Positions 478 through 25,273 of a stretch of 64,000 bases of DNA are shown in pieces. The translations under genes and the position numbers were made by a program. The stretch covers positions 2,324 to 66,323 of the forward strand of contig JAAEQW010000120.1 of the NCBI GenBank assembly GCA_024231025.1. The letters run 5' to 3'. Position 1 is the first letter of the stretch, and the number at the start of each line of letters is the position of its first letter. The DNA comes from Candidatus Omnitrophota bacterium. GTDB lineage: Bacteria > Omnitrophota > Gorgyraeia > Duberdicusellales > 4484-171. The notes beneath the pieces are model-generated. The model searched no databases, was not told the origin of the DNA, and worked only from the letters and a program-made list of their open reading frames with translations.

Positions 478-534
478 CCCTGCATCGCGTAGACACAGAT
501 AAGTTTAAGTGAAACAAGAAAGACCTGACCCCTT

Positions 535-756: not shown

Positions 757-950
757 GATTCACCTCCTGGTATAATTTTATTTATTGTCAAAATTTCCAA
801 ATTCCAAACATCAAATTACAATAACCAAATACCCAATCTCTCAAACAGTTTCGGTCATTTAGTAATTTGTAATTGGACATTGTTTGCGATTTATAATTTG
901 TGATTTTTCATAATATCTACTGCCTCTAAATTTAACCCTTTATTTAGCTA

Positions 951-10600: not shown

Positions 10601-13600
10601 TTTCCCTCTTGATCTGATATCTCAACAGTTTCTAATGGGCTTTCTAACCTAGGCAATGTCGCACTGAACATATCACCAGGAATAGCCCCATAAAGCTTTG
10701 GCTCTTGGGAACCTTGGTCAAAAATAAGTTTCAACCGCGGTCTAAAATTTATTATCCCAGGAGCAACGACTTTCACTGTCAATGGCTGACCAATCATTGG
10801 CGGCATCGGCTCAATCATAATTCTGCCTCCTCCCGCATCAGGGCCATGTTGCTGCGGCCAATAATCGCCAATAATATTGCCACGATCATCGTAAACTTCA
10901 ATCACTGCCTCACGTGTAGGTTCCTCAGGAGCATTAAATTCCCCTTGAAACCTATTGCCAGGAATAGCACCTTTGAGATTGATTTTAATATCTTTTTGAT
11001 CGGAAATAAATTTCGCTTCCGGCTTAAAGAAAAGAGCTGCATCTGACTCCACATTAACAACCACTCTATCTTTTGGTCCAAAATCGCCGCCCTCGATCCA
11101 AACCCTTAATCCTCCTGGGGCCGGACCTCCGGCATCTTCAATAATTTCAGCCATACCGGCACCAACTAAATCTCCTCGATCATTATAAACTTCACCAATA
11201 ACCATTCCTGACGAAGCATAATCAGGTATAACAAAGTTTCCCCGATATGAATTGCCGGCTCCCTGCATAACAACATTGAGTTTTCTTCCATCAGCAAAAG
11301 TTAAAGAAGCCTTAAGCTCTCTCTTTATCGGACGGCGAGAATTTAATTGAATTGTGCCTGCCTGCATTCTTCGCAATACACCAGGCATTATATAAACCTC
11401 GGCCCCGCCACGCGCCCTTAAAGATGGCACAATTCTAGTTGGAAATGTATCCAAAACCATACCTTGGTCATCTTTCACAACAAAAACTCCCATACCACTT
11501 GGAACATCTTGGGCTAACTTCAATTCTACTTCAATGCTATTTAGCGGAGGCTTTTGTTTCACGGGCATATTTAAAACCTTACCGGTATTTAACCGCAGTT
11601 GAAGTTGCGGCACGAAATCGATCGTTTCTGAAAATACTGCTTTCGCATTAAATGACGCCCCGCTTACCAGCGGTGTTGGGTTAGTAGTTAAAAATACATC
11701 TGCTCGGTGCGCGCTCTCTGATTCATCCCAAACACCTATCCGACGCCGCACCTCATCAGGTGTTGCCGGATTAAGTATAAGTTGCGCCATGCCTAAAGGA
11801 ACGTCTTTAGGGCAGGCAAATTTTCCTCTGAACTCCCTGCCGCCTCCTGACAAAGCAACCGCAATTTTTTTACCATTGCTAAAGATAAAATCAAGCTTAG
11901 GGGGCTCTTCTAAATCACCTAAAGTATTTAACACAAATTCAACGCCCTCGCCCCTTGTAATTGGATCGGGCATTACCATCAAAGCATAAAAATCATCCTT
12001 GCGCGAAACTTTGAGCCATTCGCTTGATAAACCAATTTCAAAATAAGCATGATCATTCAATTGTCCGCTTGCGACTTCAACCATGCCCCTGCCAATAGGC
12101 GAATCATTATCGATAACATATTGACCATTATAGACTCTGCCATTTTTATTGAGTGCTAACGCAGCTTTTCTCCCATCAGGAAAACTAATTACCGCATTGA
12201 TATCATCTTCTAATCTCTTCAATGGTTCAATTACAACTGCTAAGGCTGCACCTTGGGCAACATGACGAGGCATATCAATCTTAAAATTTCCAGCACCCTC
12301 TGTAATGAGCAACGGCAATGGAACTTCAATTGCTAAAGGCATTGATTCCAATCCTGCATAATTTTTAGCTTTCAACTTAACTAAAATTACAGCTCCTTTC
12401 TCATGCATTTTACTAAGCTCTAAAAAATCAATAGGTTTGTTATAGGCAAATTTTCCTTCCGCATCCGCCATGATATCAGCAACAACCTCTCCATACTCCA
12501 AGTGAACAACTGCATCAGTTGCCGTTAAACCTCGAATTATGAAATGCTGTGGATTAAACTCTAAAAACTCCAAACTTAATGGCAAATCTGTTTGACGTTG
12601 CGGAGGAACAATGCCGACTATCTTCTCAGAGCTTGTGCCGGGATTACCCGATAGATCTTCTCCTCCGTTTAGTTTAAAAACCACTTCGCCCAACGGCGCA
12701 TCTAATGGGACCTGTATCTTCGATTGAAGCTCGCGTTCATTAACTTTTACCAAGTCAAGCTTTTTACTTTCTCCGGCCGGCATTTGCGCAAAAAGCTCAG
12801 GTGCAATTGCCAAGGCTTCGGAAGAAAAAACTTTAATGTTCGACTCAACGCCTAAGACTAAAGGTGAAGGATCAACTTCAATAGAAAAACTTGGCACAAT
12901 ATTATCTTGAGCAGTTAGTGTAAAGCTAGTTGCACCTTGCGTCTGGCTTGATTTATTACCAGCCTCATCTTGGCCCTGTACTTGGATCTCGACCAATGCC
13001 GGCGACAAGCCTTCGGTATCCATACGAGCAATAAACTGTGCGCCTTCGCCTTCAACGCTAAGACCAATTGTTTTTCCATCAACTACGGCAGTTACCGCTG
13101 GATTACCGGCTACAATATCTAAGCCGTTCGTCTGTGAATCAATACTGTTGATTTCAACATATACTGGATTACCGATAATCGCCGGAAGAGGCTTAACCTC
13201 CAAAACAAAAATTGGCGGCCACATATCAGGTGGTGTTATTTCCTTGGTTACTGAACTACTACTACCTATGTAGTCAGTAGCGGTAACGGTTAACATCCCT
13301 TCGGTGAAAGAAAATTTATGACTAAACTCTCCATTTTTGCCAAAATCAACGTTTACACCATTAATCATTAAAGACGCTAATCCACTTTCGCCATCAACTG
13401 CCTTACCCGAAACAACTACCACCTGTTCGTCTTTTAAGTATTCCAATTCACCCACCTCAAGTAACGGTGGATTATTTTCGAGTTCGACAACAATAATCGT
13501 AGATGTTTGGTAAGGATCATCTGCTTTGACTTCGATTTCCTTTGTGCCAGCAGATAAAACCTGCCTGCTCTCAAAAGCACCATCACTATCTACAGCAACG

Positions 13601-16600
13601 GCCTCTTGCGCAACAAAAACTTTCATATTTTCTTTTGCATAAGGAGTAATTGCATGAGCAAAAGGCTTAGACTTATTTCCCCAAAGATCTTGGGCCTCTA
13701 CAACTAAATCTAATGGCTCACAAAGTCCCTGACTAACCTTACCTTTTAAGCTCAATTGCCCATCAATGTAAAGAGGCTCCTCTAAAAGAAGTTGCGGTGG
13801 TTCGATTATCAGATCTAATTTCAATTTGAAAGCCCCATCTTCTGATACATCAACTAACTTATCCAAAACATAAACTCCCTTTATACCTGAGGAATCCTGC
13901 ACTCGACCAGAAACAAAAAGGCTCCTGCTATGATATTGAACCTCCATATCTTTTAACTCTGGGGGTTCTTTATCTTCGGGGATTTCTGTTTTACGCGGAC
14001 CCTCAATTGCTTGATTACCTGCAATATCAACCGCACTCACCGAAACCTCGCGCAAATGCTCTGTTAAAACTGCCTCGTAATTAAAGTCTATCACTTTTTT
14101 TATGTCGTAGATGATCGGTACTCCGTTTATCTCGATGCCTTTTACAGCCACATTATCCCTCACCTTACCGGAAATAATTAATTTACCCTCTCTAACTTCC
14201 CAAATATCAATTGTAATCTCCGGTGCAATAGTATCTTCTAAAGCTAAAATCTCTTTGGTTTCTTTGCCAGAAAGATCGCGCGCAAGGACCTCTATTGATT
14301 GGGTGTTGTTATCGACTACAATTTCATAATAAAAACGTCCGTTACCTTCTAACTCAACTTTCTGTTTAGCAATTAATAAGCTTTCAATTCCAGTATCATC
14401 CTCAACTGAACCAGAGATAATCACCCTGCCACCTTTATCAAAGACTGGTTGAGAAAGATATAGAGTTGGTGGTCTTTCATCAATTAACGGCTCAATTTTT
14501 AAGCGAACCTCTTCTGACTTTTTTCCTCCTACATTAAGCGCAACTAAAATAGCTTCGATTTGGTGTTTGGGTCTTTCTGTTTTAATGACAAATGAACCAT
14601 CACTTGATGCGGTAACTGCTGCATTAGGCAACTTGCCGCTTTCATCAAGCACTTGAGCCTGTGCTTCGGTATTTCCTGAAATTTTTACGCTATCTTTTTC
14701 GTAAATAATTGACGATATTTCCAATAACGGCGGATAAACACTGCTTAATGGAAATACCTGCGGAGTTGATTCGTTACCTTTAGCATCTTTGGCTTCGACA
14801 GTGATAGATTGCACTTCTCTGCTTAGGGCAAGTTCATATTCAAACCCTCCGTCCGAGCCCAAAGAAGCGGCATTCTTATTAATTAAAACTACCGGTGGCG
14901 GTAGGCTAAAATCTAGAGCAGCTTCTATTGTTTCTTTATTGCCCGCGCCGTCAATTGCTTCCAACGACGCTTTGATATTTCTTATCGTAACCGAAGAACT
15001 CACGCTAAAGCGCCCACCTTCAGTGGTTTCTACTTCTCTATCAAAAATGGTAAGTTTAGCTATCCCCAGACCCAAATCATAAACCGTACCCTCAACAGTT
15101 GCCATGAGTTTTTCTTCAACTGAACCAGTTACCTTCGCTATCTTGCCAATGTATTCAATAGGGCTAACACTAACTATTGGAGCAAGATTGTCAGTATATA
15201 CAATATTTGTTATTTCAATTATTGGCTTCCATTTATCTTCAATATTCACGCTTACTTCATTAGCCTTGCTTTGATCTAAATTTTGCCCTTTAACAATCAG
15301 GGGAGCGGCCAACATTCCCTTATCAGGAATTATTTTAACCTGGAATAAACCAGATTCATCACAGAAAACACTTTGCCCGGCTGTTTCAATTTTACCACCG
15401 GCAATAAACTTACCCTTTAGGATAAAGTGGTCTTCTTTATAATCAACTGCTGCATTTTCGATAGCTCCGATGAGAGTTCCAATTTGTGGCTCTACTTTTA
15501 TTTCCAATGGCGGAGATTGATTGTTGCCAATGTCTTGAGCAACAATTGTCAATTTATCCAGTTTGGGTGATGCGCTAGTTTTATAAACGAATTCTCCATT
15601 TTTGGCAAAATTAATCGCACAACCGTTAACAAAAATGGCGCTTACTTCAGTATTGTCAGTTGCTAATCCCTCTACTAAAATATCGGTCCCTTGCTGAGAA
15701 AAATTCATAACCTGAACCACCGGAGGCTGAGCGTCTTTTACTTCTTTTAATTTTTGCTTTGCCTGGGCAAGCAAAGACCGAGCAAGATTTACATCTCCTT
15801 TATCGACCGAAGCCTTTATCCGCTCGACTATTGCTTTAACTTCTCTGATGTCAAAACCTAGATCTCTCTTCCTTTGAAAATGCTTCAAAAACTGCTGCCA
15901 ATCTGCTTTGAATCCAGCGGGTAAGGCAAGTGCGGCCAAGGCCTTCTTGATTTTTTCGTATATCTCCTCTATCCCTTTAACATTGCCATCTTTTTGAGCA
16001 TTCTTTAAACTGCGTAAGTGATCGTAAATTACCCCTAATTCATAGCCCAATGATTTTTTGTATTCAACATCCTTTATTAAATCTTGAATTTTGCGTTCCC
16101 ATTCTAAAGGAACATTTTTTTTAACAACAACCAAAGCACTTTCGATTGCCTCTATAGCGGTTCTTAACTTTAAAAATGACTCTGCCTCTAAGAGCTTAAA
16201 CGCAATTTCAAGCTTGAGTTTTAAATCAACAACATCATAGCCTTCCCTTTCTTTGTTGCTAATCGCCTCACCGGCTGCCTTTAATTTCTTTTCCAAATAA
16301 ATCGGCATCTCTTTAAGGGCAGTATGAAGCTTTTCGTCGGCTTCCTTTAGCAGACTATACGCTTTAGCGTGATTTTTTTCTTGATAATATATGTAGCTTT
16401 GTCGCAATAATTCCTTCACCTCACCAACAGAAAAACCTTTCACTTCTTTAGCTAATACCAACTCCTGCAATTTTTGGTAGTCAGACAAAAAGTCTGAGTC
16501 TGTTTTTTTGCTGACCGAAGCTACTCTCTGCTCTAGGAGAGCAATCAATTTTTCCACTTGGCGAACATTTTTGTCTTGCAAGGCCTCTACGACTTCTCCT

Positions 16601-17502
16601 AATAACAGATAAAGCTCAACTACATCATAGTTTTCTTTTTCTTTAGCTTCTATTTGAGTTCTTAGTTCATCTAATTTTGTAACGTACTTCTCAACATTGT
16701 TAGGTTTCTTTGCTTTCTCAAGATAAACAAATGCTTTTTCGATCAAACCGTCAACGCGCGCATAATCACCCTTTTCCAGCAAAGCAAAAGCTTCCTCGAT
16801 AATGTTTTCTACTTTACTGACCAAATACCCTTGATTCTTCTTTTCCTGAAAAGCAGCAACCAATTCCCTCAAAAATAAACGCAGCTCTTGAGCTGCCTGC
16901 GTCTGGTGATCAGCCTCTTTTTGCACATCACCGCTAAATTCATCATGTGAATCTTCGTCTCTTGAATAAATATCACCCTCTTTTTGTGACGATCCATTTT
17001 CTCCTTGAGAATCGGTGTTGTAAGTCTCTCCTTCGATAAGGATATTTTTCGATTCTTTATCTTGTCCTTTGGTTTGCAGCAAGCCTTCCGTTCCGGTAAT
17101 ACCAACAATCGCAGTAGAAGAGTGAATCTTAAATTCGGACCCTTTCTCTTTAAACGGCGTTACTTTATAGCGCATCGCACCCAAATGTAATTTTAACTCG
17201 CGATTGCTTAATTTTGTTTTGGGGTTTTGCGAAAGGTCTTTGACCTCCATTAGGGAATTCTCACCAAGGCGAAATTCACTTTCATCAGGATAAACAAGTA
17301 AAACGCTTGACTCAAGAAACGTTCTAATCATATCACCGGTAATGAGTTTGGTTTTATTCTTTACCTTTGTCCATTCACCTTGACCGGATTTCTGAACTTG
17401 GACAAGACCGGTACGTTCTTTAATTTCCAAAAACGAATCTCCCGCAGATACCATAAGAGGAAAAGATATGATTATTAAAATAATTAAAATTTTCTTCTTC
17501 AT
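1672..17502 (-). CDS. giant secreted multi-domain surface/adhesin-like protein (~5,276 aa from the MKKK start). It contains a signal peptide, a FecR-like N-domain, an alpha-helical repeat region, Ig-like beta domains, at least 13 tandem ~93-aa PDPP/DDRG modules, FN3 domains, acidic Ca-binding-like loops and C-terminal Ig-like domains.
   Basis: A single uninterrupted 15.8-kb ORF. The start ATG at 17500-17502 has GGAG 5 nt upstream. The track's longer start at 17547 is a GTG with no RBS. The signal peptide is MKKKILIILIIISFPLMVSAG. A FecR-like block reads GLVQVQKSGQGEWTKVKNKTKLITGDMIRTFLESSVLLVYPDESEFRLGENSLMEV. Repeated helical E/K-rich ~45-aa units occupy aa ~215-620. Tandem modules with I/MPDPP...VEFPxPVYFxPK...LEFxDGxR...IEDDRGMFL...FGGGG follow. 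FN3-like blocks include WDYIDWASYYEIWYG and WDYVSGVDGYKIYYG. D-rich loops include DDEDDDGIRDDDEYW, NDTNSNGSLDTDEP and DLNGNGLFDDGEPFDG. Confidence 0.9.
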   Translation of the reverse strand: MKKKILIILIIISFPLMVSAGDSFLEIKERTGLVQVQKSGQGEWTKVKNKTKLITGDMIRTFLESSVLLVYPDESEFRLGENSLMEVKDLSQNPKTKLSNRELKLHLGAMRYKVTPFKEKGSEFKIHSSTAIVGITGTEGLLQTKGQDKESKNILIEGETYNTDSQGENGSSQKEGDIYSRDEDSHDEFSGDVQKEADHQTQAAQELRLFLRELVAAFQEKKNQGYLVSKVENIIEEAFALLEKGDYARVDGLIEKAFVYLEKAKKPNNVEKYVTKLDELRTQIEAKEKENYDVVELYLLLGEVVEALQDKNVRQVEKLIALLEQRVASVSKKTDSDFLSDYQKLQELVLAKEVKGFSVGEVKELLRQSYIYYQEKNHAKAYSLLKEADEKLHTALKEMPIYLEKKLKAAGEAISNKEREGYDVVDLKLKLEIAFKLLEAESFLKLRTAIEAIESALVVVKKNVPLEWERKIQDLIKDVEYKKSLGYELGVIYDHLRSLKNAQKDGNVKGIEEIYEKIKKALAALALPAGFKADWQQFLKHFQRKRDLGFDIREVKAIVERIKASVDKGDVNLARSLLAQAKQKLKEVKDAQPPVVQVMNFSQQGTDILVEGLATDNTEVSAIFVNGCAINFAKNGEFVYKTSASPKLDKLTIVAQDIGNNQSPPLEIKVEPQIGTLIGAIENAAVDYKEDHFILKGKFIAGGKIETAGQSVFCDESGLFQVKIIPDKGMLAAPLIVKGQNLDQSKANEVSVNIEDKWKPIIEITNIVYTDNLAPIVSVSPIEYIGKIAKVTGSVEEKLMATVEGTVYDLGLGIAKLTIFDREVETTEGGRFSVSSSVTIRNIKASLEAIDGAGNKETIEAALDFSLPPPVVLINKNAASLGSDGGFEYELALSREVQSITVEAKDAKGNESTPQVFPLSSVYPPLLEISSIIYEKDSVKISGNTEAQAQVLDESGKLPNAAVTASSDGSFVIKTERPKHQIEAILVALNVGGKKSEEVRLKIEPLIDERPPTLYLSQPVFDKGGRVIISGSVEDDTGIESLLIAKQKVELEGNGRFYYEIVVDNNTQSIEVLARDLSGKETKEILALEDTIAPEITIDIWEVREGKLIISGKVRDNVAVKGIEINGVPIIYDIKKVIDFNYEAVLTEHLREVSVSAVDIAGNQAIEGPRKTEIPEDKEPPELKDMEVQYHSRSLFVSGRVQDSSGIKGVYVLDKLVDVSEDGAFKLKLDLIIEPPQLLLEEPLYIDGQLSLKGKVSQGLCEPLDLVVEAQDLWGNKSKPFAHAITPYAKENMKVFVAQEAVAVDSDGAFESRQVLSAGTKEIEVKADDPYQTSTIIVVELENNPPLLEVGELEYLKDEQVVVVSGKAVDGESGLASLMINGVNVDFGKNGEFSHKFSFTEGMLTVTATDYIGSSSSVTKEITPPDMWPPIFVLEVKPLPAIIGNPVYVEINSIDSQTNGLDIVAGNPAVTAVVDGKTIGLSVEGEGAQFIARMDTEGLSPALVEIQVQGQDEAGNKSSQTQGATSFTLTAQDNIVPSFSIEVDPSPLVLGVESNIKVFSSEALAIAPELFAQMPAGESKKLDLVKVNERELQSKIQVPLDAPLGEVVFKLNGGEDLSGNPGTSSEKIVGIVPPQRQTDLPLSLEFLEFNPQHFIIRGLTATDAVVHLEYGEVVADIMADAEGKFAYNKPIDFLELSKMHEKGAVILVKLKAKNYAGLESMPLAIEVPLPLLITEGAGNFKIDMPRHVAQGAALAVVIEPLKRLEDDINAVISFPDGRKAALALNKNGRVYNGQYVIDNDSPIGRGMVEVASGQLNDHAYFEIGLSSEWLKVSRKDDFYALMVMPDPITRGEGVEFVLNTLGDLEEPPKLDFIFSNGKKIAVALSGGGREFRGKFACPKDVPLGMAQLILNPATPDEVRRRIGVWDESESAHRADVFLTTNPTPLVSGASFNAKAVFSETIDFVPQLQLRLNTGKVLNMPVKQKPPLNSIEVELKLAQDVPSGMGVFVVKDDQGMVLDTFPTRIVPSLRARGGAEVYIMPGVLRRMQAGTIQLNSRRPIKRELKASLTFADGRKLNVVMQGAGNSYRGNFVIPDYASSGMVIGEVYNDRGDLVGAGMAEIIEDAGGPAPGGLRVWIEGGDFGPKDRVVVNVESDAALFFKPEAKFISDQKDIKINLKGAIPGNRFQGEFNAPEEPTREAVIEVYDDRGNIIGDYWPQQHGPDAGGGRIMIEPMPPMIGQPLTVKVVAPGIINFRPRLKLIFDQGSQEPKLYGAIPGDMFSATLPRLESPLETVEISDQEGNIFVSMPVEFIGGGHVSLEFDIELTSDLISGETASLMIRANNEIPFVPRLALDFAGKIVDVPLAGSPYSREFMGRFVVPVDAPLDNIAVSVFDPTGRLLTQRMINFGQESNMPGLYLDVKPQGNDGFELFWERLPRVSFYELLYGEGENLKEKIEIRGQSRHQLRGLMQGRRYSFEIIAYDSRKQEIMRSPIVSSVCGQLRRELHVQDIIMPDSVSLIWGDYPGADSYRVSWGNSPGGYANSMETSEKSYMLTNLPKGVPNFIKVFALGQGKMLSESREIVAYLEEFVARGVDIGINPEPAGEIGKDLEIYLHFMQDIPFVPQVSVQFEGYGEFLVAAGEKRDFKVIIPGSKVKSSLVSIDVQDDRGRPIGNRFFGGSGGGADFGGPDLRIMPDPPIEGQPLDIELTLPMLIPQAPKARIIYSDGSSKEYAFDGRLPGRRFNAHIGQLEKAAVGLDLLDPFGTVRHSVGFMHQTQQTMVRDFRVTPHNPFPGDSINVNLEFVNMVNFAVKLFLEYDDGRREEFVFPQKNVNTFYMNIDGSQIKGALRRAVIEDDRGMFLIDQPFGGGPVMGTGNIMTMPDPPRRNQPLGIRVEFPYPLPTTPKLILESVSGARQEFRFPQEPGLFVYKFSASAYQMQEDLQRVVVENETGLILAERFFGTGAGPVDGADIKLTPDMPVPHQDLTVHVDFPYPVQFTPKVVLEFSSGARNGKIFPQSPGNNAYYITLRGVEIIEPLQRVVIEDDRGMHIADRFVGGGGSSSAMGANLIVNPDPPMPHQDLGIKVEFPEPVYFKPKAVLEFEDGTRKDFWFSQESGARLYELNVVAAENMRPLHRIAIEDDRGGMFIVDRIFSTGSMMSAAANINVMPDPPIANQPLNIKIEFPSPVYFVPKIELEFNDGGRFPIYMQHEAPGKTRYETSLPASDIRRPIHRIEVQDDKGMFLGDRFFGSGGPMMGGILIDVIPDPPQLGSNLEIVVHFDYEPYFTPKIVAGLDNGAREFLNVTGQGREYKAMLSADRFNANLLIIDVEDEGGMHLGDRMFGAQTNFDGQGLVVNPYPPIVGQRLDVNAEIPLVSPLAMRLRYRYMDGVVEEITMQGDLPGSRFHDFIDPLTKPLVGIDLLDPYGVVRDNLEMSGPAPTGGMITVNPDPPMPYQDLNLRVELESAAYYHPIIVVEYSDGSYTGYGFPQDVGDTIYQRVIPGGEITKNIERIAIKDEQGTLIAERLFGSMNVGGPMIDIMPNPPIAGQDLIIKTSFPSPIYFVPKLILEFTDGQRRALSFPQGVGLSMYEATIPSSEMVGPLHRVVIEDDRGMFLGDFLLSHSGSDGVNIMVMPDPPVVFADLNVRLEFSQSEFFKPQIEVEFDNGTAKRFFYTGEEGRSSYDIYVAASEINAPISRIAAFDDKGGFLGDRPFSGGPYSQGVHIMVNPDPPIGGQDLGVRFEFPSPVYFTPKCVLEFSDGQRREFWFPQGPGLSVYETTISANEVYQPVDRIAAEDDRGMLLGDIYFGNMLQAKAYLASAGSGTLDVSWDYIDWASYYEIWYGTAPGNYNGEGSPKNVGQVTEHQLTDLTDGQIYYAVIKAYDANGGLGYTTLEEFLELTGTNIPYPNNIWTEQTYNFGEIIVRWDYVSGVDGYKIYYGRSSRTYPDFVIVSDPSITRTTIGGLQSGVPYYITVTCTMNDGSESSYSPREVEAFATGGASGGSINITTSDSAHHPPELDFEEIVVGQDTETKTITLQNLSSHQANIKVELSSYLSNTTDMITQIDSSNINLSPASPYAVAANSSLDISTSVSIPSTGVTPGEYVGEITFYDDEDDDGIRDDDEYWENVQIFLFFGAEGLDISGDGGLDFMNYAPGSTTSWGEFTLQNTATTALNNIITTTIQLYKFTGPGEGSFEAVAGFNVEADIPSSLAVGASDIGRLRVVIPDNAVDGEYGTMVSMFNDTNSNGSLDTDEPLETIGFHLFVSSAGGGGHRDLEVGEASLNYATVDAGASAERNVNIMNNMAQTIVVRIEPSNLISGVNTISSNNITFVPISIEPWSGSVSRAITVSVPSSQPSGAYTGGARVYGDLNGNGLFDDGEPFDGIVIILGVSSSGSAGIDLNIQEESLDLGGADPNQTSVGVNITIENNSDSTMQINIDATDLIAGPFAMPGSSISNNFSPFSLDGQSSDTRQIAVTVLAGQASAVTYQGGLIFYNDTNSNGSRDNDEAYDSMQIQIAVNRQGITSLTPIAGTGGTVDLVWSDPNAATDHYNVYWVASPGAFDFSSPDAITAQRFYQVSGLTASTTYDFLVRSADDEDVEDNGVVQASETARALPVDTAAPTFAGVKHAYAPGAAGTITLEWNAATDSDATILYDIDYGETSSLGTTVADLTKANVNCASDNECTYGITGLSANTEYHFRVRAEDSVPNQDTNAYILTAKTPPATGVDHVGITAVGSASSSVGDPVMVKLTAWQNAGETIVATNFADSIIVDVIESSSRMQNSWLLSVRDRMTGGVGEVAMFNGVGYFTVDSLEPETITVSVEVGTNASAERTLNVALTSVTGAAIDALVSQGPGAVSTNQQGQIWLSAIDNQGNLVTDYAGIVNITVSEENSNGSAVLRKGGSVVAGSYSFTGAGGDNGEILLTLENSEAEEVNIIFSVSGVGDVAENVNFLGVDKLYVYSGASFSSGYQVAGTRIRFTAYSGNDASGVRLGGYNATVNVNILSESTNDSSSYVDPSSITFVDGIGEFALENSQVENVKFQLEDAGDATIKSAEITVSFQSSDTNPPEVLEAVAETPYLVHVYFDEDIDSDNAQNKDNYNGIGDIHTVCWYEDNVTLHLSNPLTLGGTFNLDVRGDDNGTGGIKDKDNNYISGMTTVSGDVPSVDYQGGAISGQDWYEVQPATLTPLAGETVSVVVYHKNACGYLSGTNAVNRTAVPSDSSDVTFGGTVTGIDDATVDMGSAEGAFQFVIPVGALIGQTVTITVDDGAISGDSPTITVQ
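6150..9800 (-). repeat. intragenic tandem repeat array of at least 13 copies at ~280-bp period (93 aa) inside the giant gene; more degenerate copies extend to ~11400
   Basis: A recurring DNA core, the reverse complement of ATTATGCCTGATCCGCC (encoding IMPDPP), appears at approximately 6321, 6601, 6881, 7161, 7441, 7715, 8000, 8285, 8570, 8860, 9135, 9420 and 9710. The protein copies are highly similar (for example LIVNPDPPMPHQDLGIKVEFPEPVYFKPKAVLEFEDGTRKDFWF versus INVMPDPPIANQPLNIKIEFPSPVYFVPKIELEFNDGGRFPIYM). Confidence 0.85.
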
Positions 17503-17532
17503 CCCGACTCCCTTACTAAAAAAATCGCTCAT

Positions 17533-17568
17533 ATAAAAAATCCCCACAACTTAGTAGCTATGGGGATT
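17533..17568 (-). promoter_or_regulatory. intrinsic-terminator-like hairpin plus U tract in the 5' leader of the giant gene (possible attenuator, or terminator of the upstream HTH gene)
   Basis: The minus-strand RNA reads AAAUCCCCAUAGCUACUAAGUUGUGGGGAUUUUUUAU. A 7-8 bp stem (AUCCCCA/UGGGGAU) with a ~14-nt loop is followed directly by UUUUUU, about 30 nt upstream of the RBS/ATG at 17502. Coordinates are +/-2 nt. Confidence 0.4.
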
Positions 17569-17687
17569 TATTGTAGTGTTTTATTCGGTAACTGACTGCC
17601 ATAGCTCCTAAGACCTTAGACTCTTGAGTTTTGCGCCCTCACCTTTCGATGAGTTTGCCTTTTTCGCAAAAAGAAATAACCTAATTT

Positions 17688-17912
17688 TTAAAGATCTTTT
17701 TGTCTATTTTTTCTTTTGAGTTGCTGTCTTCGTTTAATTCTTTTTTCAACCCAATGTTCAAGCAAATCTCTCTTAAAGCGCCACTGCCCTTTAAGCTTAA
17801 AAGCAGGAATGTCTGTATCTTGAATTAACCGATATATAGTAATCGTGTGCACCCCTAAGTATTTAGCGGCTTCGCTTGCACTCATTATTTGAAGACGTTT
17901 ATACTGGCTCAT
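17688..17912 (-). CDS. small HTH DNA-binding protein, excisionase/MerR-like HTH_17 family (74 aa)
   Basis: The segment SASEAAKYLGVHTITIYRLIQDTDIPAFKLKGQWRFKRDLLEHW is typical of the excisionase-family HTH_17 domain, followed by a basic tail. The RBS AGGGGG lies ~5 nt upstream of the ATG at 17912. The gene is on the same strand as the giant gene and 185 nt upstream of its start. Confidence 0.7.
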   Translation of the reverse strand: MSQYKRLQIMSASEAAKYLGVHTITIYRLIQDTDIPAFKLKGQWRFKRDLLEHWVEKRIKRRQQLKRKNRQKDL

Positions 17913-17987
17913 ATTTCCCCCTAATTTGGGTATAGCATATTTTGTTAAAAATTACCACTTTTTATCAAATATTTTCCATTTTTATGT

Positions 17988-18017
17988 ATTGCTATGCATT
18001 GCTATGAATTGCTATTG
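17988..18017. repeat. three head-to-tail 10-bp direct repeats ATTGCTATGC / ATTGCTATGA / ATTGCTATTG (putative operator/iteron array) in the divergent intergenic region
   Basis: Read directly: ATTGCTATGCATTGCTATGAATTGCTATTG at exact 10-bp (one helical turn) spacing. The array lies 45 bp upstream of the -35 of the plus-strand promoter and ~75 bp upstream of the HTH gene start. Confidence 0.6.
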
Positions 18018-18062
18018 TCATAAAATCAACGATTTTCCTTGAAAAACGGTATTTTTTTAGTG

Positions 18063-18091
18063 TAGACAGCCAAATAAACTACTGTTATAAT
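18063..18091 (+). promoter_or_regulatory. strong sigma70-like promoter for the OMP-lipoprotein-cyclase operon (-35 TAGACA, 17-nt spacer, extended -10 TGTTATAAT)
   Basis: TAGACA at 18063-18068, TG at 18083-18084 and TATAAT at 18086-18091. This gives a 5' UTR of ~32 nt before the ATG at 18130. Confidence 0.5.
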
Positions 18092-18129
18092 TAAGAAGAT
18101 TTTTAAAAACGACCACTATTACTCATAAA

Positions 18130-20481
18130 ATGATTAAAAAAACCTCCACAAGGCTTTTTATTCTACTGTGTTATTTGGGGTGCTGGATTGGCTTTTCTAC
18201 CGCAGCTAAAGAAGCTCCGAGTGAAATTTTCTCTCAAGGAATAGTTAATCTGCAACAAGGAAACTTAAAAAAAGCAAAAAGCCTCTTTGAAAAAGTCACC
18301 AAGCTTGAATTTGGTCACTATCCTTCATATTTCAATATCTCTTTAATATACCTAAATACCGGTGACTACAAAAAATCCATCAAATCTTTAGAAAAAGCCA
18401 AAAAATTTAACCCCTACGACCTACGGGTGGATGCACTTCTTGCAACCAGCTTCATTATGACAAAAAAAACAAAAAACGCTAAAGAGGCGCTATCAACTAT
18501 CATTTCAAAAAAACCTGACGATATAAACTCCCACAAAAAGTTAGGTATTTTGCACTTGCAAGAAGGCAATCTAAAAGAGGCGCTCTCGGAATTTACTACG
18601 ATAAAAAACTTATCCCCCGCAGATCAAGATGTTACCCAACTTTTAGAAACTGCCCAAAACAAGACAAGCAATAAGCTTATTAATTCTTTAAAAAGTAACA
18701 TTGTCACCCGTGAAATAGAATCAATAAAACCGGCAGAAAAATTCGAACTTAGCGAGGTGTCGAAACGAATCGTAAAAAAATTAAAAAAAGAAGAAGAGCA
18801 AACCGCACCCGCACCAACCGTAAAAAAACCAAAAAAGAAACTTCCGTTTAACACAAAAGCGACTTTAACTGAAACTTTCGAGCTCTACGACAGGAGCCCC
18901 CAAGCCAGTAGCCCAATTAATAAATTTCATAGCGCGTCAAATTTGAAATTTCAAGGAAAGATCAAGAAAAAAATAGATTACACCACTCAATTAGAGTGGT
19001 TTTTTAACACTTGGGATCACACAGTTTTAGACTATTATAAGGTGAACTTCAAAGAACGCGATAAATACGAGGTGGACGTCGGTAAATTCTCTGCAAAACA
19101 CTTTCCCAAATTAGTCAGCTACCCTACAGTTAATGACGGATTAAGGATATGGAAGAAATTTAAACGTCCTGATGCTCAAATCAGTGAAACATCCATAACA
19201 GAGACTAGTAATAAACCAATCAATCTAGGTGAACTTTATCGAAAAAATCAAGACTTACGCTGGTTTAAGTCTGCTGAACTTACCTATGTGATCGGGCGCA
19301 CTCTTGCCCCAGTCAATTTAGATCGACGAAAAGAAAAAAATGAAGATACATACGAAACCAGCGGGCAATTTGAGCAATGGACCACAGCTGTGCGTGCTTA
19401 CACAAAAGTTAATTCTTTTTCTGATTTTGGAGTGTCTTTTGCCTTAACCCAAGACAGAGAGCACTCAGCCAATATTAGCTCATCAACTAATCCAATAACT
19501 TCAAAGGCACTTGGCATCGATGGTAATTTTAGCTTGTTAAACGATAAGCTCAGCTTTGACTGGGAAATCGCAAGAAGCGACTATGATGAAAACAGTCTCG
19601 ATCCAACCGATAAACATCTTGAAGATAAAGCTTGGTACGCTAAGTTCACTTATAAGCCACAGAAAGAGTATACTTTCTCCTATGAACATACCGGAGTGGA
19701 AAAAAGTTTTAAAGTAGAAGGAGCTTATCAAACAGAAGATAAACTGAGTCACATTATTAACGCTCAATTTAAGCCATCGGAACCAAAAACTTGGAGCTTA
19801 AAATCGCTCTCATTAAAATTTCAACCTGAAGAAACTAACTTTAGAGGCTATGGAACAAGCAGAAAGAAGTATCGGACCTTTCAACCAGTAGTTGATATCA
19901 AACTTCCTGATGACGCAAAGCTAACTCTGGACTATAAATATTACCGGGAGTATGATAAGTGCGTATGCAGCTCTTATCGCACCCGAAAATTAAAATCAGC
20001 TATTGAATGGGAAGCAAAACCAATAAAAACCACTTTTAAACCATCATATACTTTTGAGCGTAAAGACGACCGCGTTGCTGCTGCTACTGATGAAAACTTA
20101 AAAGAAACCGTCCTGACAATTGAGAATAAATTAATAAAAAACTTAACCGTTAAGGGATCTATTGAGCGCGAAATAAAAACATACGTTGGGGCAACCACTA
20201 AAAGCTACCACCAACATGTTTATAGCGCTGAAGCAAAATATGACATTGTTCCTTCGCGCTTTGACGCAAAATTCAAACTATCGCGAGACAGAAAGGATTC
20301 TTCCGACACAAATGACACCGACATAATTACCCTTACCTGGGAACTTAACTATACGTCTAAGGATCGCGACCATAAGATAGCCTTAAAGATAGAACGCAAA
20401 AATAACACTTACGACCCCTGGTCAGAAACGTCTGCTTACCGGCAGAACTATGCAAAACTGAAGTATACCTATAAGTTCTAA
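18130..20481 (+). CDS. outer-membrane protein with N-terminal TPR repeats and a large C-terminal beta-barrel (783 aa); architecture is like the PgaA/BcsC family of exopolysaccharide export porins
   Basis: Signal peptide MIKKTSTRLFILLCYLGCWIGFSTAA. TPR-like helices at aa 30-200 (LQQGNLKKAKSLFEKV..., YKKSIKSLEKAKKFNP..., LQEGNLKEALSEFTT). A K/P-rich linker follows. About 530 aa of alternating amphipathic beta strands rich in Y/T/K end in the C-terminal aromatic ...KLKYTYKF, typical of OMP barrels. Confidence 0.55.
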   Translation: MIKKTSTRLFILLCYLGCWIGFSTAAKEAPSEIFSQGIVNLQQGNLKKAKSLFEKVTKLEFGHYPSYFNISLIYLNTGDYKKSIKSLEKAKKFNPYDLRVDALLATSFIMTKKTKNAKEALSTIISKKPDDINSHKKLGILHLQEGNLKEALSEFTTIKNLSPADQDVTQLLETAQNKTSNKLINSLKSNIVTREIESIKPAEKFELSEVSKRIVKKLKKEEEQTAPAPTVKKPKKKLPFNTKATLTETFELYDRSPQASSPINKFHSASNLKFQGKIKKKIDYTTQLEWFFNTWDHTVLDYYKVNFKERDKYEVDVGKFSAKHFPKLVSYPTVNDGLRIWKKFKRPDAQISETSITETSNKPINLGELYRKNQDLRWFKSAELTYVIGRTLAPVNLDRRKEKNEDTYETSGQFEQWTTAVRAYTKVNSFSDFGVSFALTQDREHSANISSSTNPITSKALGIDGNFSLLNDKLSFDWEIARSDYDENSLDPTDKHLEDKAWYAKFTYKPQKEYTFSYEHTGVEKSFKVEGAYQTEDKLSHIINAQFKPSEPKTWSLKSLSLKFQPEETNFRGYGTSRKKYRTFQPVVDIKLPDDAKLTLDYKYYREYDKCVCSSYRTRKLKSAIEWEAKPIKTTFKPSYTFERKDDRVAAATDENLKETVLTIENKLIKNLTVKGSIEREIKTYVGATTKSYHQHVYSAEAKYDIVPSRFDAKFKLSRDRKDSSDTNDTDIITLTWELNYTSKDRDHKIALKIERKNNTYDPWSETSAYRQNYAKLKYTYKF

Positions 20482-20506
20482 ATTGTCAATCACGCAAATG
20501 GAGGTA

Positions 20507-21418
20507 ATGATGCGATTAATAATGATTATTGTGGTGATTTTTACAGGTTGTTCAACCATTAACCCAAAAATGCTTGTAAACCCCTACGAACCGCTTTATT
20601 ACCGCGGGACCGACAGCTTTGATAACAAAGATTACACAACCGCTATCGAAGCATACTCTCGTTTTCTTGAAAAATGCCCTGATTCCTCTTTTACCATTCC
20701 GGCAAAACTAAATTTAGCAATGGCATATTACCATCAAGAAAAGTGGCAATTGACTCAAAGCACTTTAAAGGACGTAAAAATAACCGATTCCGCTATCAGC
20801 AAATTTGTCAACGATACATTAGCTACTTGCGAAAAAAAACTAAATCCAAATGGCAGCACAACGAGTGAAAAAACAGAAACACAACCACAAGAAGAAGTAG
20901 TAATTACGATTACTGACGCTTACTTAGATAACGCTGACATGCTTAATTTAACCGGAACCGTATCTAGAGAGGGTAAAATTTATATCGGCCAAATAGCAGC
21001 TGATTTTCAAAAAGATAATACGTTCACCATCATTTCGCGTTGGCGCAAGGGCAAGCCGATTATTATATCCTGGCGTAAAGACGGACTCGAGCAAACTCTA
21101 GATTACTATCCCGACAATGAAGAACCGCAAGCCCCTGATGGCCTTTTTCGACGCAATATGAGCGATAATACCGTTGAATTGGAATGGAACGACAATGATG
21201 AGGGCGATATTAAAGGCTACAAATTATACTATCAATTAAGCGGCAGTGGATCACTTCAGGAAGTGCGTGATATAATTGAAGATACAGACTTCGAAGTGGT
21301 TGGTTTGCAAAATTTAATTGATGGCGCAAATAAAACTTTTCGTTTTTACCTTAGAGCCGTAGATAAAATGAATAATTATTCTGATCCGTCAGACACCCTA
21401 GAGGTAACTTTGCCTTAA
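20507..21418 (+). CDS. lipoprotein with a TPR-like region and a C-terminal fibronectin type III domain (~303 aa)
   Basis: GGAGG at 20500-20504 is followed by ATGATG. The lipobox IFTGCS is present. TPR-like segments are DYTTAIEAYSRFLEKCPDS and LNLAMAYYHQEKW. An FN3-like block reads VELEWNDNDEGDIKGYKLYYQ...FRFYLRAVDKMNNYSDPS. It starts 2 nt after the OMP gene stop. Confidence 0.55.
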   Translation: MMRLIMIIVVIFTGCSTINPKMLVNPYEPLYYRGTDSFDNKDYTTAIEAYSRFLEKCPDSSFTIPAKLNLAMAYYHQEKWQLTQSTLKDVKITDSAISKFVNDTLATCEKKLNPNGSTTSEKTETQPQEEVVITITDAYLDNADMLNLTGTVSREGKIYIGQIAADFQKDNTFTIISRWRKGKPIIISWRKDGLEQTLDYYPDNEEPQAPDGLFRRNMSDNTVELEWNDNDEGDIKGYKLYYQLSGSGSLQEVRDIIEDTDFEVVGLQNLIDGANKTFRFYLRAVDKMNNYSDPSDTLEVTLP

Positions 21419-21419
21419 A

Positions 21420-24005
21420 ATGAAAAAGATTACCATCTGCATATTAATTAGCTTCCTGGTAGCCTTAATTTTAGGAGGACTGTCAATTTTTGCCCCGTAT
21501 CGCCTAATTGAGTCTAAGCTCTACGATGCACGAATGAATTTACGCCCTGCGCCTACTCAAGATAAAAGAATATTGTTTATCGAAATGGACGAACAAGCAA
21601 TAGATGACCTTGGACGCTGGCCATGGCCCCGAGACATAAATGCCCAATTAATTGAAACCTTAAAATCACTTGGAGCAAGGCAGGTTTTATTTGATGTCAC
21701 TTTTTCAAACACATCGCAGTTAGTTATCGATAAAGAAAAAATGAATGAGGTTTTTAAAGAAAAAAATATAATTTCTGACTTCATAGATCAGGTATCCGAT
21801 GGAATAAAATCAGGTGACATAAAAGAAAGAGAAGATATTTTATGGTATTTAACTCAAATCAACGATGGAATTGATGCCTTCAGAGGCAACCTTACCGACA
21901 GCATGCGCTATGCAATTACTGATAAAGATAAAATTCTCGCCTCAGCGCTTTCCAGCGATGATGTTTTTATTGGATATAAATTTGAAGTCATACACAAACC
22001 TCATGACATAGCAAAAGATGAAACCTACGCAACGCTAAAAAAGGAATTCGAAAACTGGATTATCAATAACCCAACAAAATTCTACCGAGATCTTCCTCAC
22101 CAATACAAAAGCATCTCGTCTTTTAGCGAAGAAGAAAAAAATCTTCTTTTTTTCCAACTTAAAATTCGCACCCTACTTAATGAAAATATACAAAGTAGCG
22201 TTGATCAAATAGCAAAAGCACTGAATAGACCAAAAAAAGAAGTGCGTCCCGAATTTAACAGTATAAAGAAAGATCTAGCGGAAGAAAAAATTATTTCTTT
22301 TTTAGAAGAAAATGCTCAAGCAAAATTCACTCAGGTAATATGGACCAGTCAAATCCATGATCGCCAAACAGCTCTGCTTTTTAAAAAAGCTTGGGCAAAT
22401 GTTAAGAAAAAACAACTTTTTATTGAAAAAATTGGACGCCATATAAAAACCGATCAAAAATTTCTAAAAGCAGTTAAACTCGACGTTCCCATCGCCGAAT
22501 TCACTAAAGCAGTTAACGGAGCGGGATTTCTCAATGGCATTGTCGACGATGATGGCGTACTGCGCAGCGTTCCGCTTTTCATAAAGTACGAAAACAAAAT
22601 ATACCCACATATGGCAATAACATCTGTTATAAATTTGCTTAAACCAAAAGAAATCAGTTTTGTTGGCGGAAAATTTTGCCTACTAAAAGGCATTGTCACC
22701 GAGGGCAAGCAAAAAGACCTGCGCATACCAATAGATGCAAAAGCAACTACCCTTATAAATTGGGTCGGTAAATGGCACGATACATTTAGACATGCTTCTT
22801 GCAGCGATGTTTATCGCCTTTACTCTTTACGGGAAAACGCAAAGCATAATGCCAATATCCCTAAAGAAGAATTAACCGCCGAAGCCTTAGGCGCAATCGC
22901 CAAAGAAAACGAACGCCTAGCTGAAAATGAAAAAAAGTTAACCGATAAGGTTGCTGGTTCAATTTGCATAATTGGCCTTACCGCAGCGGGAACTCATGAC
23001 TATAACCCTATACCGCAGGAATCAGCTTATCCCATGCTAGGCACTCATGCTAACATTATAAATTCGATATTAACCGAACAATTTATCACAAAAGCACCCA
23101 AAATTTATGACCTTGCCGTTACTCTCATTTTAGTAATTCTTCTGGGGGTGGTTTTAACACTGCTATCCTCTACGATTGGATTAATTTTTATAATTGCTGT
23201 AATTGCTGTAATTTTTTATTTATCGCTTTTTTTATTTAACCATGGTATCTGGATAAATTTAACATCTCCGATTTTGCTTTCTCTATTTTCGTATCTTGGA
23301 ATCACTAGCTACAAGTTCGCAACTGAAGAAAAAGAAAAACGCTGGATAAAAAAGGCATTCTCGCATTACGTTTCAAAAGAAGTAATAGAGGAAATCATAA
23401 AGGACCCGTCTAAATTAAAACTTGGTGGCCAGAGAAAGGTGCTAACCGTTCTTTTTAGTGATATAAGAAGTTTCACTACATATTCTGAAAAAAGAAAACC
23501 GGAAGAAGTTGTTACAGTGCTAAATGAATACCTCGACGAAATGACAAAAGTTATATTTGCCAATAGCGGAACGCTTGACAAGTATGTTGGTGATGAAATA
23601 ATGGCACTTTTCGGCGCACCACGCTATGAACCGCCTGATTTAAGCGCCGTGCATGCGGTAAAAACCGCCTGCGCCATGCTTGAAAAATTAGCTCTTCTGC
23701 AGGAAAAATGGAAAGCACAAGGCATAGAACCGCTTGATATCGGAATTGGCATAAACACCGGGGAGATGGTCGTTGGGAATATGGGATCAAGCTTGGTTAT
23801 GGACTACACCGTAATCGGTGATGCCGTAAATTTGGGTGCACGCATTGAAGCTTTAACCCGCCAATACAATAATCATATCATTGTTTCAGAATCTACTTAC
23901 GAGTACATAAAAGACATTGTGGATGCTAAACCGCTAGAAGCAATCAAGGTTAAAGGAAAGAACATTCCCGTTATGATATATCAAGTCAATGGAATGAAGA
24001 CTTAA
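21420..24005 (+). CDS. membrane-bound CHASE2 sensor domain / class III adenylate (or guanylate) cyclase (861 aa)
   Basis: An N-terminal TM helix is followed by a ~520-aa periplasmic-type domain (CHASE2-like length and position). A cluster of 3-4 TM helices follows (LAVTLILVILLGVV...IFIIAVIAVIFYLSLFLF...ILLSLFSYLGI). The C-terminal cyclase domain carries VLTVLFSDIRSFTTYSE, YVGDEIMALFGAP and VVGNMGS...YTVIGDAVNLGARIE, which are class III nucleotidyl cyclase signatures. Confidence 0.85.
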   Translation: MKKITICILISFLVALILGGLSIFAPYRLIESKLYDARMNLRPAPTQDKRILFIEMDEQAIDDLGRWPWPRDINAQLIETLKSLGARQVLFDVTFSNTSQLVIDKEKMNEVFKEKNIISDFIDQVSDGIKSGDIKEREDILWYLTQINDGIDAFRGNLTDSMRYAITDKDKILASALSSDDVFIGYKFEVIHKPHDIAKDETYATLKKEFENWIINNPTKFYRDLPHQYKSISSFSEEEKNLLFFQLKIRTLLNENIQSSVDQIAKALNRPKKEVRPEFNSIKKDLAEEKIISFLEENAQAKFTQVIWTSQIHDRQTALLFKKAWANVKKKQLFIEKIGRHIKTDQKFLKAVKLDVPIAEFTKAVNGAGFLNGIVDDDGVLRSVPLFIKYENKIYPHMAITSVINLLKPKEISFVGGKFCLLKGIVTEGKQKDLRIPIDAKATTLINWVGKWHDTFRHASCSDVYRLYSLRENAKHNANIPKEELTAEALGAIAKENERLAENEKKLTDKVAGSICIIGLTAAGTHDYNPIPQESAYPMLGTHANIINSILTEQFITKAPKIYDLAVTLILVILLGVVLTLLSSTIGLIFIIAVIAVIFYLSLFLFNHGIWINLTSPILLSLFSYLGITSYKFATEEKEKRWIKKAFSHYVSKEVIEEIIKDPSKLKLGGQRKVLTVLFSDIRSFTTYSEKRKPEEVVTVLNEYLDEMTKVIFANSGTLDKYVGDEIMALFGAPRYEPPDLSAVHAVKTACAMLEKLALLQEKWKAQGIEPLDIGIGINTGEMVVGNMGSSLVMDYTVIGDAVNLGARIEALTRQYNNHIIVSESTYEYIKDIVDAKPLEAIKVKGKNIPVMIYQVNGMKT

Positions 24006-24832: not shown

Positions 24833-25273
24833 TTAAAAAACGAGTCCGCCCCCGGGATTATTTTTTCTGCGCAAGCGACGTGACATTTCAGTCATCATTT
24901 GATAAAGAATCTTTGCAACAATATGCGCAGACTTAGTAAAAAGTTTGTTAAAATCCTGCCTGTTTATCTCCAGAAGAATAGTGTTCTCTGTAGCAATAAT
25001 TGAGGCAGTTCTAACAGCATAATCAAAAAGAGCAACCTCACCAAAAAAATCACCCCCTGCCAACTGTATTATTTCTTCTGCGTTTTTAACAACTTTTACG
25101 GCACCGCTTTTTATGATGTACATGCTCTCGCCCTTGGACCCTTCGGAAAATACTGTCATATCTGGAAGATATATTTTTTTAGTAAAAATCGGCACTAACT
25201 CTTCCAACTCGTCAGGATGTAGCAATTGAAAAACGAACAATCCTTGCAGATCAGCTGAATTTAGTTCTTCCAT
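24833..25273 (-). CDS. stand-alone cyclic-nucleotide-binding (CAP effector-domain) protein, 146 aa, no DNA-binding domain
   Basis: A cNMP-binding beta-roll with phosphate-binding cassette GGDFFGEVALFDYAVRTASIIA. The segment VFSEGSKGESMYIIKSGAVKV is typical of CAP/PKA-R type domains. Confidence 0.8.
   Translation of the reverse strand: MEELNSADLQGLFVFQLLHPDELEELVPIFTKKIYLPDMTVFSEGSKGESMYIIKSGAVKVVKNAEEIIQLAGGDFFGEVALFDYAVRTASIIATENTILLEINRQDFNKLFTKSAHIVAKILYQMMTEMSRRLRRKNNPGGGLVF

Follow-up and report, generated by a model that had tools for sequence, protein, structure and literature searches.

The 64,000-nt stretch analyzed here (the window; contig JAAEQW010000120.1 of a Candidatus Omnitrophota bacterium) carries a giant gene, and such genes are a hallmark of Omnitrophota. 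Judged from open reading frame (ORF) and domain calls, the gene encodes a FecR-domain protein that is secreted and carries repeats of the Ig-like and fn3 types: a signal-peptide-like N-terminus, MKKKILIILIIISFPLMVSAG, a FecR domain (aa 58-158), and then Big_6, Glucodextran_B, and fn3-type repeats. Directly upstream, on the same strand, lies a gene for a small helix-turn-helix (HTH) protein of the HTH_17 family. Three 10-bp repeats are situated between this gene and a divergent operon for TPR proteins and a CHASE2 cyclase (table 1). The HTH gene, the repeats, and a terminator-like hairpin ahead of the giant gene had been recorded in an initial annotation of the sequence, and all are present. 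The decisive element was overlooked in it: between the HTH gene and the hairpin is a class I riboswitch aptamer for cyclic di-GMP (c-di-GMP). We consider it likely that control at this locus has two layers, an HTH protein with its own repeat operator and, ahead of the giant gene, a riboswitch that turns expression OFF.

Table 1. Features of the window. Coordinates are those of the 64-kb window.
Feature	Position	Strand	Sequence or structure	Basis or detail
CinA gene	988..1461			
Giant ORF	1672..17502	-	5,276 aa (15.8 kb)	ORF and domain calls
Giant-gene start codon	17502..17500	-	ATG	Read from sequence
Giant-gene ribosome-binding site (RBS)	17514..17508	-	AAGGGAG	Read from sequence
Intrinsic terminator (expression platform)	17569..17535	-	14-bp stem, ACUA loop, U6	
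Antiterminator, 3' strand	17563..17550	-	CCAUAGCUACUAAG	Most of terminator 5' arm, loop, first bases of 3' arm
Antiterminator, 5' strand	17612..17599	-	CUUAGGAGCUAUGG	From aptamer P3: loop, 3' strand, receptor half
c-di-GMP-I (GEMM-I) aptamer	17669..17584	-		Rfam RF01051, 72.7 bits versus gathering score of 35
HTH_17 gene	17912..17688	-	74 aa	PF12728, 55.4 bits versus cut-off of 27, residues 10-58 of 74
Putative HTH extended -10	17937..17929	-	TGcTATACC	Conserved alignment across loci
Three tandem head-to-tail 10-bp units	17988..18017		ATTGCTATGC / ATTGCTATGA / ATTGCTATTG	Tandem Repeats Finder (TRF)
The same units in the HTH direction	17988..18017	-	ATAGCAATTC / ATAGCAATGC / ATAGCAATAC	
Divergent-operon promoter	18063..18091	+	TAGACA-17-TGtTATAAT	Extended -10; 11/12 consensus positions plus TG
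Divergent operon	18130..24005	+		TPR 18130..20481; TPR/fn3 20483..21418; CHASE2 adenylate/guanylate cyclase 21420..24005
cNMP-binding genes	25444..25896, 24833..25273			
Wzy_C gene	25937..27157			

The aptamer is the sole Rfam match in the whole window. Its match to RF01051 is full length (model positions 1-87 of 87; E = 2.4e-12 over the 64 kb) and scored above the other members of the clan. From the HTH stop codon to the start of the element is a distance of 17 bases (18 if the last base of the codon is included), and another 14 nt separate its end from the hairpin. A GAAA tetraloop caps the P2 hairpin, CUCAUC-GAAA-GGUGAG, and the P3 hairpin has a CUAAG/UAUGG receptor of the 11-nt type. In the Rfam alignment, G 17659 directly 5' of GCAAA, the A after the closing GC, and the ACC at 17590..17588 fall on conserved consensus positions. 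We take the G, A, and C concerned to correspond to G20, A47, and C92 of the Vc2 riboswitch, the residues that contact the ligand. Relative to riboswitches at two related loci, L006 and L013, there are compensatory pair changes in P2 and P3, in a comparison of only four sequences. A riboswitch of the GEMM-Ib type for 3',3'-cyclic GMP-AMP (3',3'-cGAMP) was considered and rejected; it needs an A at position 20, whereas the window carries G, and c-di-GMP is therefore the favored ligand. By its sequence, the element is a complete c-di-GMP-I riboswitch aptamer. Nearest-neighbor folding of the window recovered neither the Rfam aptamer fold nor the P1 stem, so the aptamer call rests on the covariance model and the switch on constrained and nascent folds. 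Matches to the trpB-motif and BTnc005 over the terminator were sub-threshold and driven by the hairpin, and were discarded.

The hairpin that follows, with its tract of six U residues, had been described in the initial annotation, which held that a non-negative folding energy would count against it. The hairpin at 17569..17538 folds at -19.8 kcal/mol (z = -5.8), and none of 200 shuffles folds as well. Its 14-bp stem includes 5 GC pairs, the loop is 4 nt, and U6 follows directly, as expected of an intrinsic terminator. Because a complete aptamer lies just upstream, we read it as the expression platform of the riboswitch. The giant-gene RBS and ATG are located ~20-30 nt past the terminator. As had been suspected, this leaves the giant gene without room for its own promoter after the hairpin: ~20 nt separate the end of the U tract from the RBS, and a promoter scan finds no site there.

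The terminator (17569..17538) and the aptamer (which ends at 17584) share no nucleotide. A strand from the 3' part of the aptamer is, however, complementary at 13 of 14 positions to a strand from the terminator (the antiterminator strands in table 1). The predicted duplex has an energy of -16.5 to -17.3 kcal/mol, compared with a mean of -10.2 (standard deviation 2.4) for shuffled aptamers, and 13 of 2,000 dinucleotide shuffles are as good. In a series of nascent RNAs of increasing length, the antiterminator helix is part of the minimum free energy structure when the 3' end is at 17556..17546, and the terminator takes its place from 17544 onward. We infer from this architecture a kinetically controlled transcriptional OFF switch of the Cd1 type. 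When c-di-GMP is low, the 3' half of P3 (17612..17599) would pair with the emerging 5' arm of the terminator (17563..17550); the terminator would be delayed and RNA polymerase would read into the giant gene. When c-di-GMP is bound, the 17612..17599 strand would be locked in the folded aptamer, the terminator would form, and transcription would stop. The OFF reading follows from the layout, which matches Cd1 of the Clostridioides difficile flgB operon. In Cd1, the aptamer can be folded at the same time as the terminator, a short-lived antiterminator is in competition with both, and termination is increased by c-di-GMP (PMC9262584).

An attenuator-type or antitermination checkpoint had been proposed for this leader. 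A conditional terminator is indeed the best reading of it, but the sensor is predicted to be the c-di-GMP-I aptamer, neither the HTH protein nor a leader peptide. Save for an in-frame upstream extension of the giant ORF, there is no leader-peptide ORF of at least 20 aa on the - strand in 17503..17687, and thus none that overlaps the alternative hairpins as in a trp-type attenuator, which was rejected.

Comparison with related loci places the riboswitch next to a giant gene a second time. In locus L006 of the Omnitrophota single-amplified genome AM-312-C06 (on the same contig as L030), an HTH_17 gene cut by the contig end is followed after 17 nt by an aptamer of 55.6 bits and then by the ATG of a giant FecR protein of >5,045 aa, 40% identical to that of the window over the N-terminus. 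There is no terminator at the L006 riboswitch. Instead, its P1 stem, GUCUUUUG/CGAAAGAC, ends 2 nt before the AUG, and OFF is predicted here as well because a P1 stabilized by the ligand would occlude the ribosome site. A scan of metagenomes yielded one locus only, L100, with an HTH_17 gene, no riboswitch, and a giant FecR orthologue (34% identity). Four further giant orthologues (L101-L104; 39-42% identity) have neither HTH_17 gene nor riboswitch. In at least L101-L103, an opposite-strand gene is directly upstream of the giant gene, and only that of L103 has TPR hits on record. HTH and giant genes are thus adjacent in three of the seven loci and a riboswitch is present in two, both with an HTH gene. 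From this distribution, the aptamer is predicted to be a lineage-specific addition that was combined with two different platforms.

Riboswitches of this class also occur away from giant genes in these bacteria. Locus L013, from another Omnitrophota metagenome-assembled genome (MAG), lacks HTH_17 and has two GEMM-I riboswitches, at 7103..7019 (-) and 448..531 (+). The one at 7103..7019 has a terminator read before a gene for a small secreted protein. One of the two scores best as the c-di-GMP-I-GGC variant, and its terminator 5' arm is complementary to aptamer P2. The 17-mer of the aptamer core, CGCAAARCTCAAGAGTC, matches 93 stretches in genome contigs, against a chance estimate of roughly 100-140. 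In an Rfam scan of 18 loci with the 17-mer, real riboswitches were confined to L013 and L030; the matches in L042 and L050 are coincidences within coding sequences. The same scan turned up a 6S RNA gene (101.6 bits) at 671..861 (+) of L042, an unrelated Omnitrophota contig. Genome contigs yielded no match when searched with the N-terminus of the giant protein as the single query.

The evidence on the source of the giant-gene transcript tips toward co-transcription with the HTH gene, in which case the riboswitch would be intercistronic. From the HTH start to the aptamer, the scan detects nothing that resembles a promoter. Nor does a terminator separate the HTH stop from the aptamer; in the window, the HTH gene is followed by a single terminator, that of the riboswitch. 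In L100, only 35 nt lie between the HTH and giant genes, which favors an HTH-giant operon there. At L001, where the HTH homologue is found in another context, a terminator of its own follows the HTH gene. Transcripts in the window would start at the HTH promoter, and the riboswitch terminator would double as a conditional end of the HTH mRNA. There may also be a weak internal start within the 3' end of the HTH gene.

We are doubtful of an arrangement in which riboswitch and giant gene are a separate unit with a promoter in the HTH 3' end, and in which the HTH gene and repeats are mere neighbors. It is consistent with L006, where a perfect TGgTATAAT (188-196) overlaps the HTH stop ~17 nt before the aptamer, a possible internal promoter that would make the giant gene independent of HTH transcription. 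It is also consistent with L013, where both riboswitches have their own TTGACA/TATAAT promoter, with the HTH homologues that precede unrelated genes at other loci, and with synteny that suggests insertion of the giant gene next to a pre-existing HTH gene. In the window, however, the counterpart of the L006 -10 element is TTTAAAAAT, which lacks the TG and has a poor hexamer, and the promoter scan finds nothing at this position. The missing terminator between HTH stop and aptamer also speaks against a separate unit, as does the 35-nt gap in L100, which argues for an operon at that locus, where there is no riboswitch.

The HTH_17 domain makes up essentially the whole HTH protein. Its sequence matches, at 100% identity, one deposited at NCBI from a Candidatus Omnitrophica MAG, and its homologues are 52-63% identical in the alignment, with all those whose source is named coming from Omnitrophota. 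Sequence searches against the PDB, with the single sequence and with a profile, gave noise only (sorting nexin and eS26), and a fold search was therefore used. The AlphaFold2 model (predicted local distance difference test score of 87) has as top Foldseek matches in the PDB RacA, BldC (6ama, 6amk), RdfS (8dgl), and Pukovnik Xis, with a probability of ~1.0 and root-mean-square deviations of 1.5-3.0 Å. Template modeling scores normalized by target are 0.6-0.78 overall (BldC 0.68-0.78; RdfS 0.67-0.68; Pukovnik Xis ~0.7), and E-values are only 0.03-0.15 because the HTH domain is small. The predicted structure resembles a minimal MerR-like winged helix-turn-helix (wHTH) with a fold like those of BldC, Xis, and RdfS.

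The repeats are detected by TRF with a period of 10, 3.3 copies, and 91% matches, and the exact helical phasing ascribed to them amounts to their being simply tandem. The near-consensus extended -10 promoter noted beside them exists, but it is on the + strand and is predicted to drive the TPR/CHASE2-cyclase operon, not the HTH or giant gene. Read toward the HTH gene, the TAGCAA cores of the repeats are at -102, -92, and -82 from its ATG. Upstream of the HTH homologue in L100, TATCAA / TAGCAA / TATCAA are at -110, -100, and -90, and in L001, where the downstream genes are unrelated redox genes, TAGCAA / TAGCAA / TAACAA are at -96, -86, and -76. The phased TA[G/T/A]CAA triplet, a pattern defined post hoc after the data had been seen, is found in 0 of 20,000 dinucleotide shuffles of each of the three regions. 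Because the repeats recur upstream of HTH homologues at two further loci, they are candidates for an operator of the HTH protein itself. They are not specific to giant-gene control, because L001 is not next to a giant gene.

At a fixed distance past the repeats in these loci is an element of the form TGnTATA(Y)(Y), with TGgTATACT in L100 and TGtTATATC in L001, L106, and L107 as counterparts of the window sequence. This alignment suggests that the -10 of the HTH promoter is at 17937..17929; the promoter scan offers TTGATA-18-CAAAAT (17968..17939) as an alternative. In L105, there is no intergenic region before the HTH gene. In L005, the annotated start of the HTH homologue P0010 (MWYTLG...; 4917..4935) overlaps a TGgTATACT aligned with the -10 elements of the others, and its true start is probably farther downstream. 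We conclude that the repeats belong, as a conserved feature, to the promoter of this HTH subfamily and most likely serve as its operator. The HTH protein would be expressed from a weak promoter of its own with the repeats just upstream, several monomers would bind the three repeats head-to-tail, and any effect of the repeats on the giant gene would come solely by way of the transcript that the two genes share.

A less credible view is that the repeats are no HTH operator but a microsatellite that arose by chance, an AT-rich UP-like element, or the binding site of some other factor. The units number only three, the rest of the window shows no enrichment of the 9-mer ATTGCTATG (21 matches with at most one mismatch versus 22.3 expected), and the copies at other loci are degenerate though phased (L107) or single (L106 and L005). 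Against this view, three loci whose HTH proteins are only ~56-60% identical to that of the window, one of them with unrelated downstream genes, agree in the core, its period and orientation, and its distance from the ATG (~-80 to -110). In addition, no shuffle reproduces the triplet, and head-to-tail multimers on direct repeats are the mode of binding among the nearest relatives of the protein by structure.

Several further points, together with the L006 promoter, the post hoc definition of the triplet, and the irregular copies of the repeats, weigh against two-layer control. For the full leader, the energy is -40.1 kcal/mol with the terminator versus -31.8 kcal/mol with the antiterminator enforced. 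The terminator wins at equilibrium, and since it is the equilibrium state once its 3' arm is made, read-through depends on kinetics. The window aptamer has a weak, ambiguous P1 stem. A mini-hairpin immediately 5' of its core, CUUUUU-GCG-AAAAAG (17673..17659, -), would pair the base at the G20 position and may, in this fold prediction, hinder the ligand pocket from forming. A check of the window ORFs, at motif level only, revealed neither GGDEF nor EAL motifs. The repeats, with core TAGCAA and period 10, do not match the BldC consensus AATTxxxx(C). Lastly, c-di-GMP riboswitches on large surface or adhesin genes are often ON switches, for example that of Bacillus thuringiensis cap, Bc2-cap (PMC4933901), which makes OFF biologically less expected for an adhesin-like protein.

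The last of these points raises the alternative that the same riboswitch is ON and that c-di-GMP promotes read-through into the giant gene. High c-di-GMP usually favors adhesins and surface proteins, the giant protein is predicted to be secreted and rich in Ig and fn3 repeats, and Bc2 is an ON terminator/antiterminator switch before a collagen adhesion protein (PMC4933901). However, a bound aptamer cannot block a terminator with which it shares no nucleotide, and the sole strong competitor of the terminator 5' arm is the 3' strand of aptamer P3, which is unavailable in the folded aptamer. P1 in L006, which abuts the AUG, also predicts OFF, and we judge the ON alternative improbable. Hardly tenable is the view that the hairpin is a constitutive HTH terminator and the aptamer a decaying relic, with the giant gene expressed from elsewhere or by leaky read-through: the terminator is the thermodynamic ground state and four orthologous giant genes lack any riboswitch, but the aptamer matches the model over its full length, exceeds the cut-off by 37 bits with all conserved core positions kept, and is conserved in a second orthologous locus, its 13/14-bp antiterminator is unlikely by chance (13/2,000 shuffles), and the ~20 nt from U tract to RBS hold no promoter-like site.

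Synteny suggests a history for the putative OFF riboswitch and its HTH neighbor. In L107, the gene order is Wzy_C, cNMP_binding, cNMP_binding, HTH_17, and, on the opposite strand, CinA; L106 has the same order without a recognized Wzy_C gene. L001-L004 have two cNMP-binding genes ahead of the HTH gene, and in L105 the HTH gene comes directly after a CHASE2 cyclase gene that runs into it. The same genes flank the region in the window (table 1), with 46% identity to the L107 counterpart for the first cNMP-binding protein and 42% for CinA. In the window, the cyclase/TPR operon separates the cNMP pair from the HTH gene, which is itself separated from CinA by the riboswitch and giant gene. From gene order, it seems that the HTH gene was already present when the giant-gene module came to surround it. 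An excisionase or other mobile-element role for the HTH_17 protein was ruled out because of this conserved synteny; its flanks consist of chromosomal genes in synteny across Omnitrophota, and there is no integrase among the annotated window neighbors (annotation up to 35.7 kb). The stand-alone cNMP-binding proteins (~150 aa) beside a stand-alone HTH protein look like a "split CRP".

At its core, the finding adds a member to a riboswitch class that is well known and has a textbook mechanism, and it leaves knowledge of riboswitch mechanisms unchanged. Its interest is in where the riboswitch is located. A riboswitch before a giant gene, conserved in a second genome, is a concrete and testable statement on when such a gene is transcribed, and it implies that c-di-GMP signaling operates in these uncultured cells. 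The terminator here and the overlap of P1 with the start codon in L006 represent turnover of platforms around a conserved aptamer. The phased TAGCAA repeats are a candidate operator for an uncharacterized HTH_17 subfamily that is found mostly on metagenomic contigs and whose named members are from Omnitrophota. Our literature search found no report that connects a giant gene of Omnitrophota with a c-di-GMP riboswitch. In the literature dedicated to Omnitrophota giant genes, as searched, regulation, riboswitches, c-di-GMP, promoters, and FecR go unmentioned.

A broader scenario is speculative, and we give it little weight. The BldC-like HTH gene adjoins genes for stand-alone cNMP-binding proteins in several relatives and faces the CHASE2 cyclase operon in the window. 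An Omnitrophota lineage could have wired a giant gene into this pre-existing cassette such that two second messengers converge, with the HTH protein setting the promoter and the c-di-GMP riboswitch vetoing elongation. With the same low likelihood, the CHASE2 cyclase operon would be a conserved partner of the FecR giant gene. A FecR-domain protein is encoded beside a CHASE2 sensor in a Burkholderia biofilm operon (PMC5192318), and the FecR domain of the giant protein may talk to the CHASE2 sensor. If the scenario is true, the giant protein is made only at low c-di-GMP, perhaps in a free-swimming or host-seeking state, and the locus offers a first regulatory handle on how putatively predatory or parasitic nanobacteria deploy giant proteins.

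Some details of the giant-gene start and of more distant genes are of separate note. The first leader base of the giant gene is 17503. A GTG at 17547, given as the start in the ORF listing, is inside the 3' arm of the terminator, and the ATG at 17502 with its RBS is preferred. An in-frame AUG at 17532..17530 (-), 10 codons upstream of that ATG, comes directly after the terminator U tract, and the GGGGA of the terminator 3' arm sits 8 nt upstream of it; the AAGGGAG RBS and the sequence resembling a signal peptide favor the start at 17502. The giant-gene Shine-Dalgarno sequence is predicted to be covered by a weak hairpin rich in G-U pairs, CGAUUUUUUU-AGU-AAGGGAGUCG (17527..17505, -), which may be a second, translational layer or mere noise. 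Elsewhere in the window, a polysaccharide-biosynthesis cluster includes a 320-aa ORF (30739..31701, -) with an IS200-like Y1 transposase domain (aa 10-121) that is ~2x the usual length of this transposase family. Two B12-binding radical-SAM genes are side by side (32928..35749, -) in the glycosyltransferase/Wzy cluster.

Relative to known systems, the HTH protein is closest to BldC of Streptomyces, which oligomerizes head-to-tail on direct repeats (PMC5859096), and to RdfS/Xis (PMC11963761). As in these proteins, ~70 aa form a wHTH domain only, with no effector or dimerization domain, and direct repeats precede the promoter. Identity is only 14-33%, however, with no match to any PDB chain at the level of hidden Markov models. 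The repeats differ from those of BldC in core and period, and, unlike RdfS and Xis, the window HTH gene has no integrase or mobile element adjacent to it. Among riboswitches, Vc2 of Vibrio cholerae shares the docking of a GAAA tetraloop and its receptor between hairpins and the G, A, and C at the G20, A47, and C92 positions. Vc2 is generally described as translational, whereas the window riboswitch has a terminator platform and a weak P1. Bc2 (PMC4933901) likewise places a class I aptamer and a terminator immediately before a large surface-protein gene, but ligand binding gives an antiterminator there and switches the gene ON, the opposite of what the window architecture predicts. Another counterpart is Cd1, in which a class I aptamer is also followed by a separate intrinsic terminator, and an antiterminator that is only kinetically stable joins the 3' part of the aptamer to the 5' strand of the terminator. 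The two differ in host phylum, Omnitrophota for the window, and in location: Cd1 lies in a 5' untranslated region behind its own promoter, and the window riboswitch comes directly after an HTH gene and is probably intercistronic. They differ as well in the gene controlled, flagellar genes for Cd1 and, in the window, what is predicted from sequence to be a single 15.8-kb secreted FecR/Ig-repeat gene.

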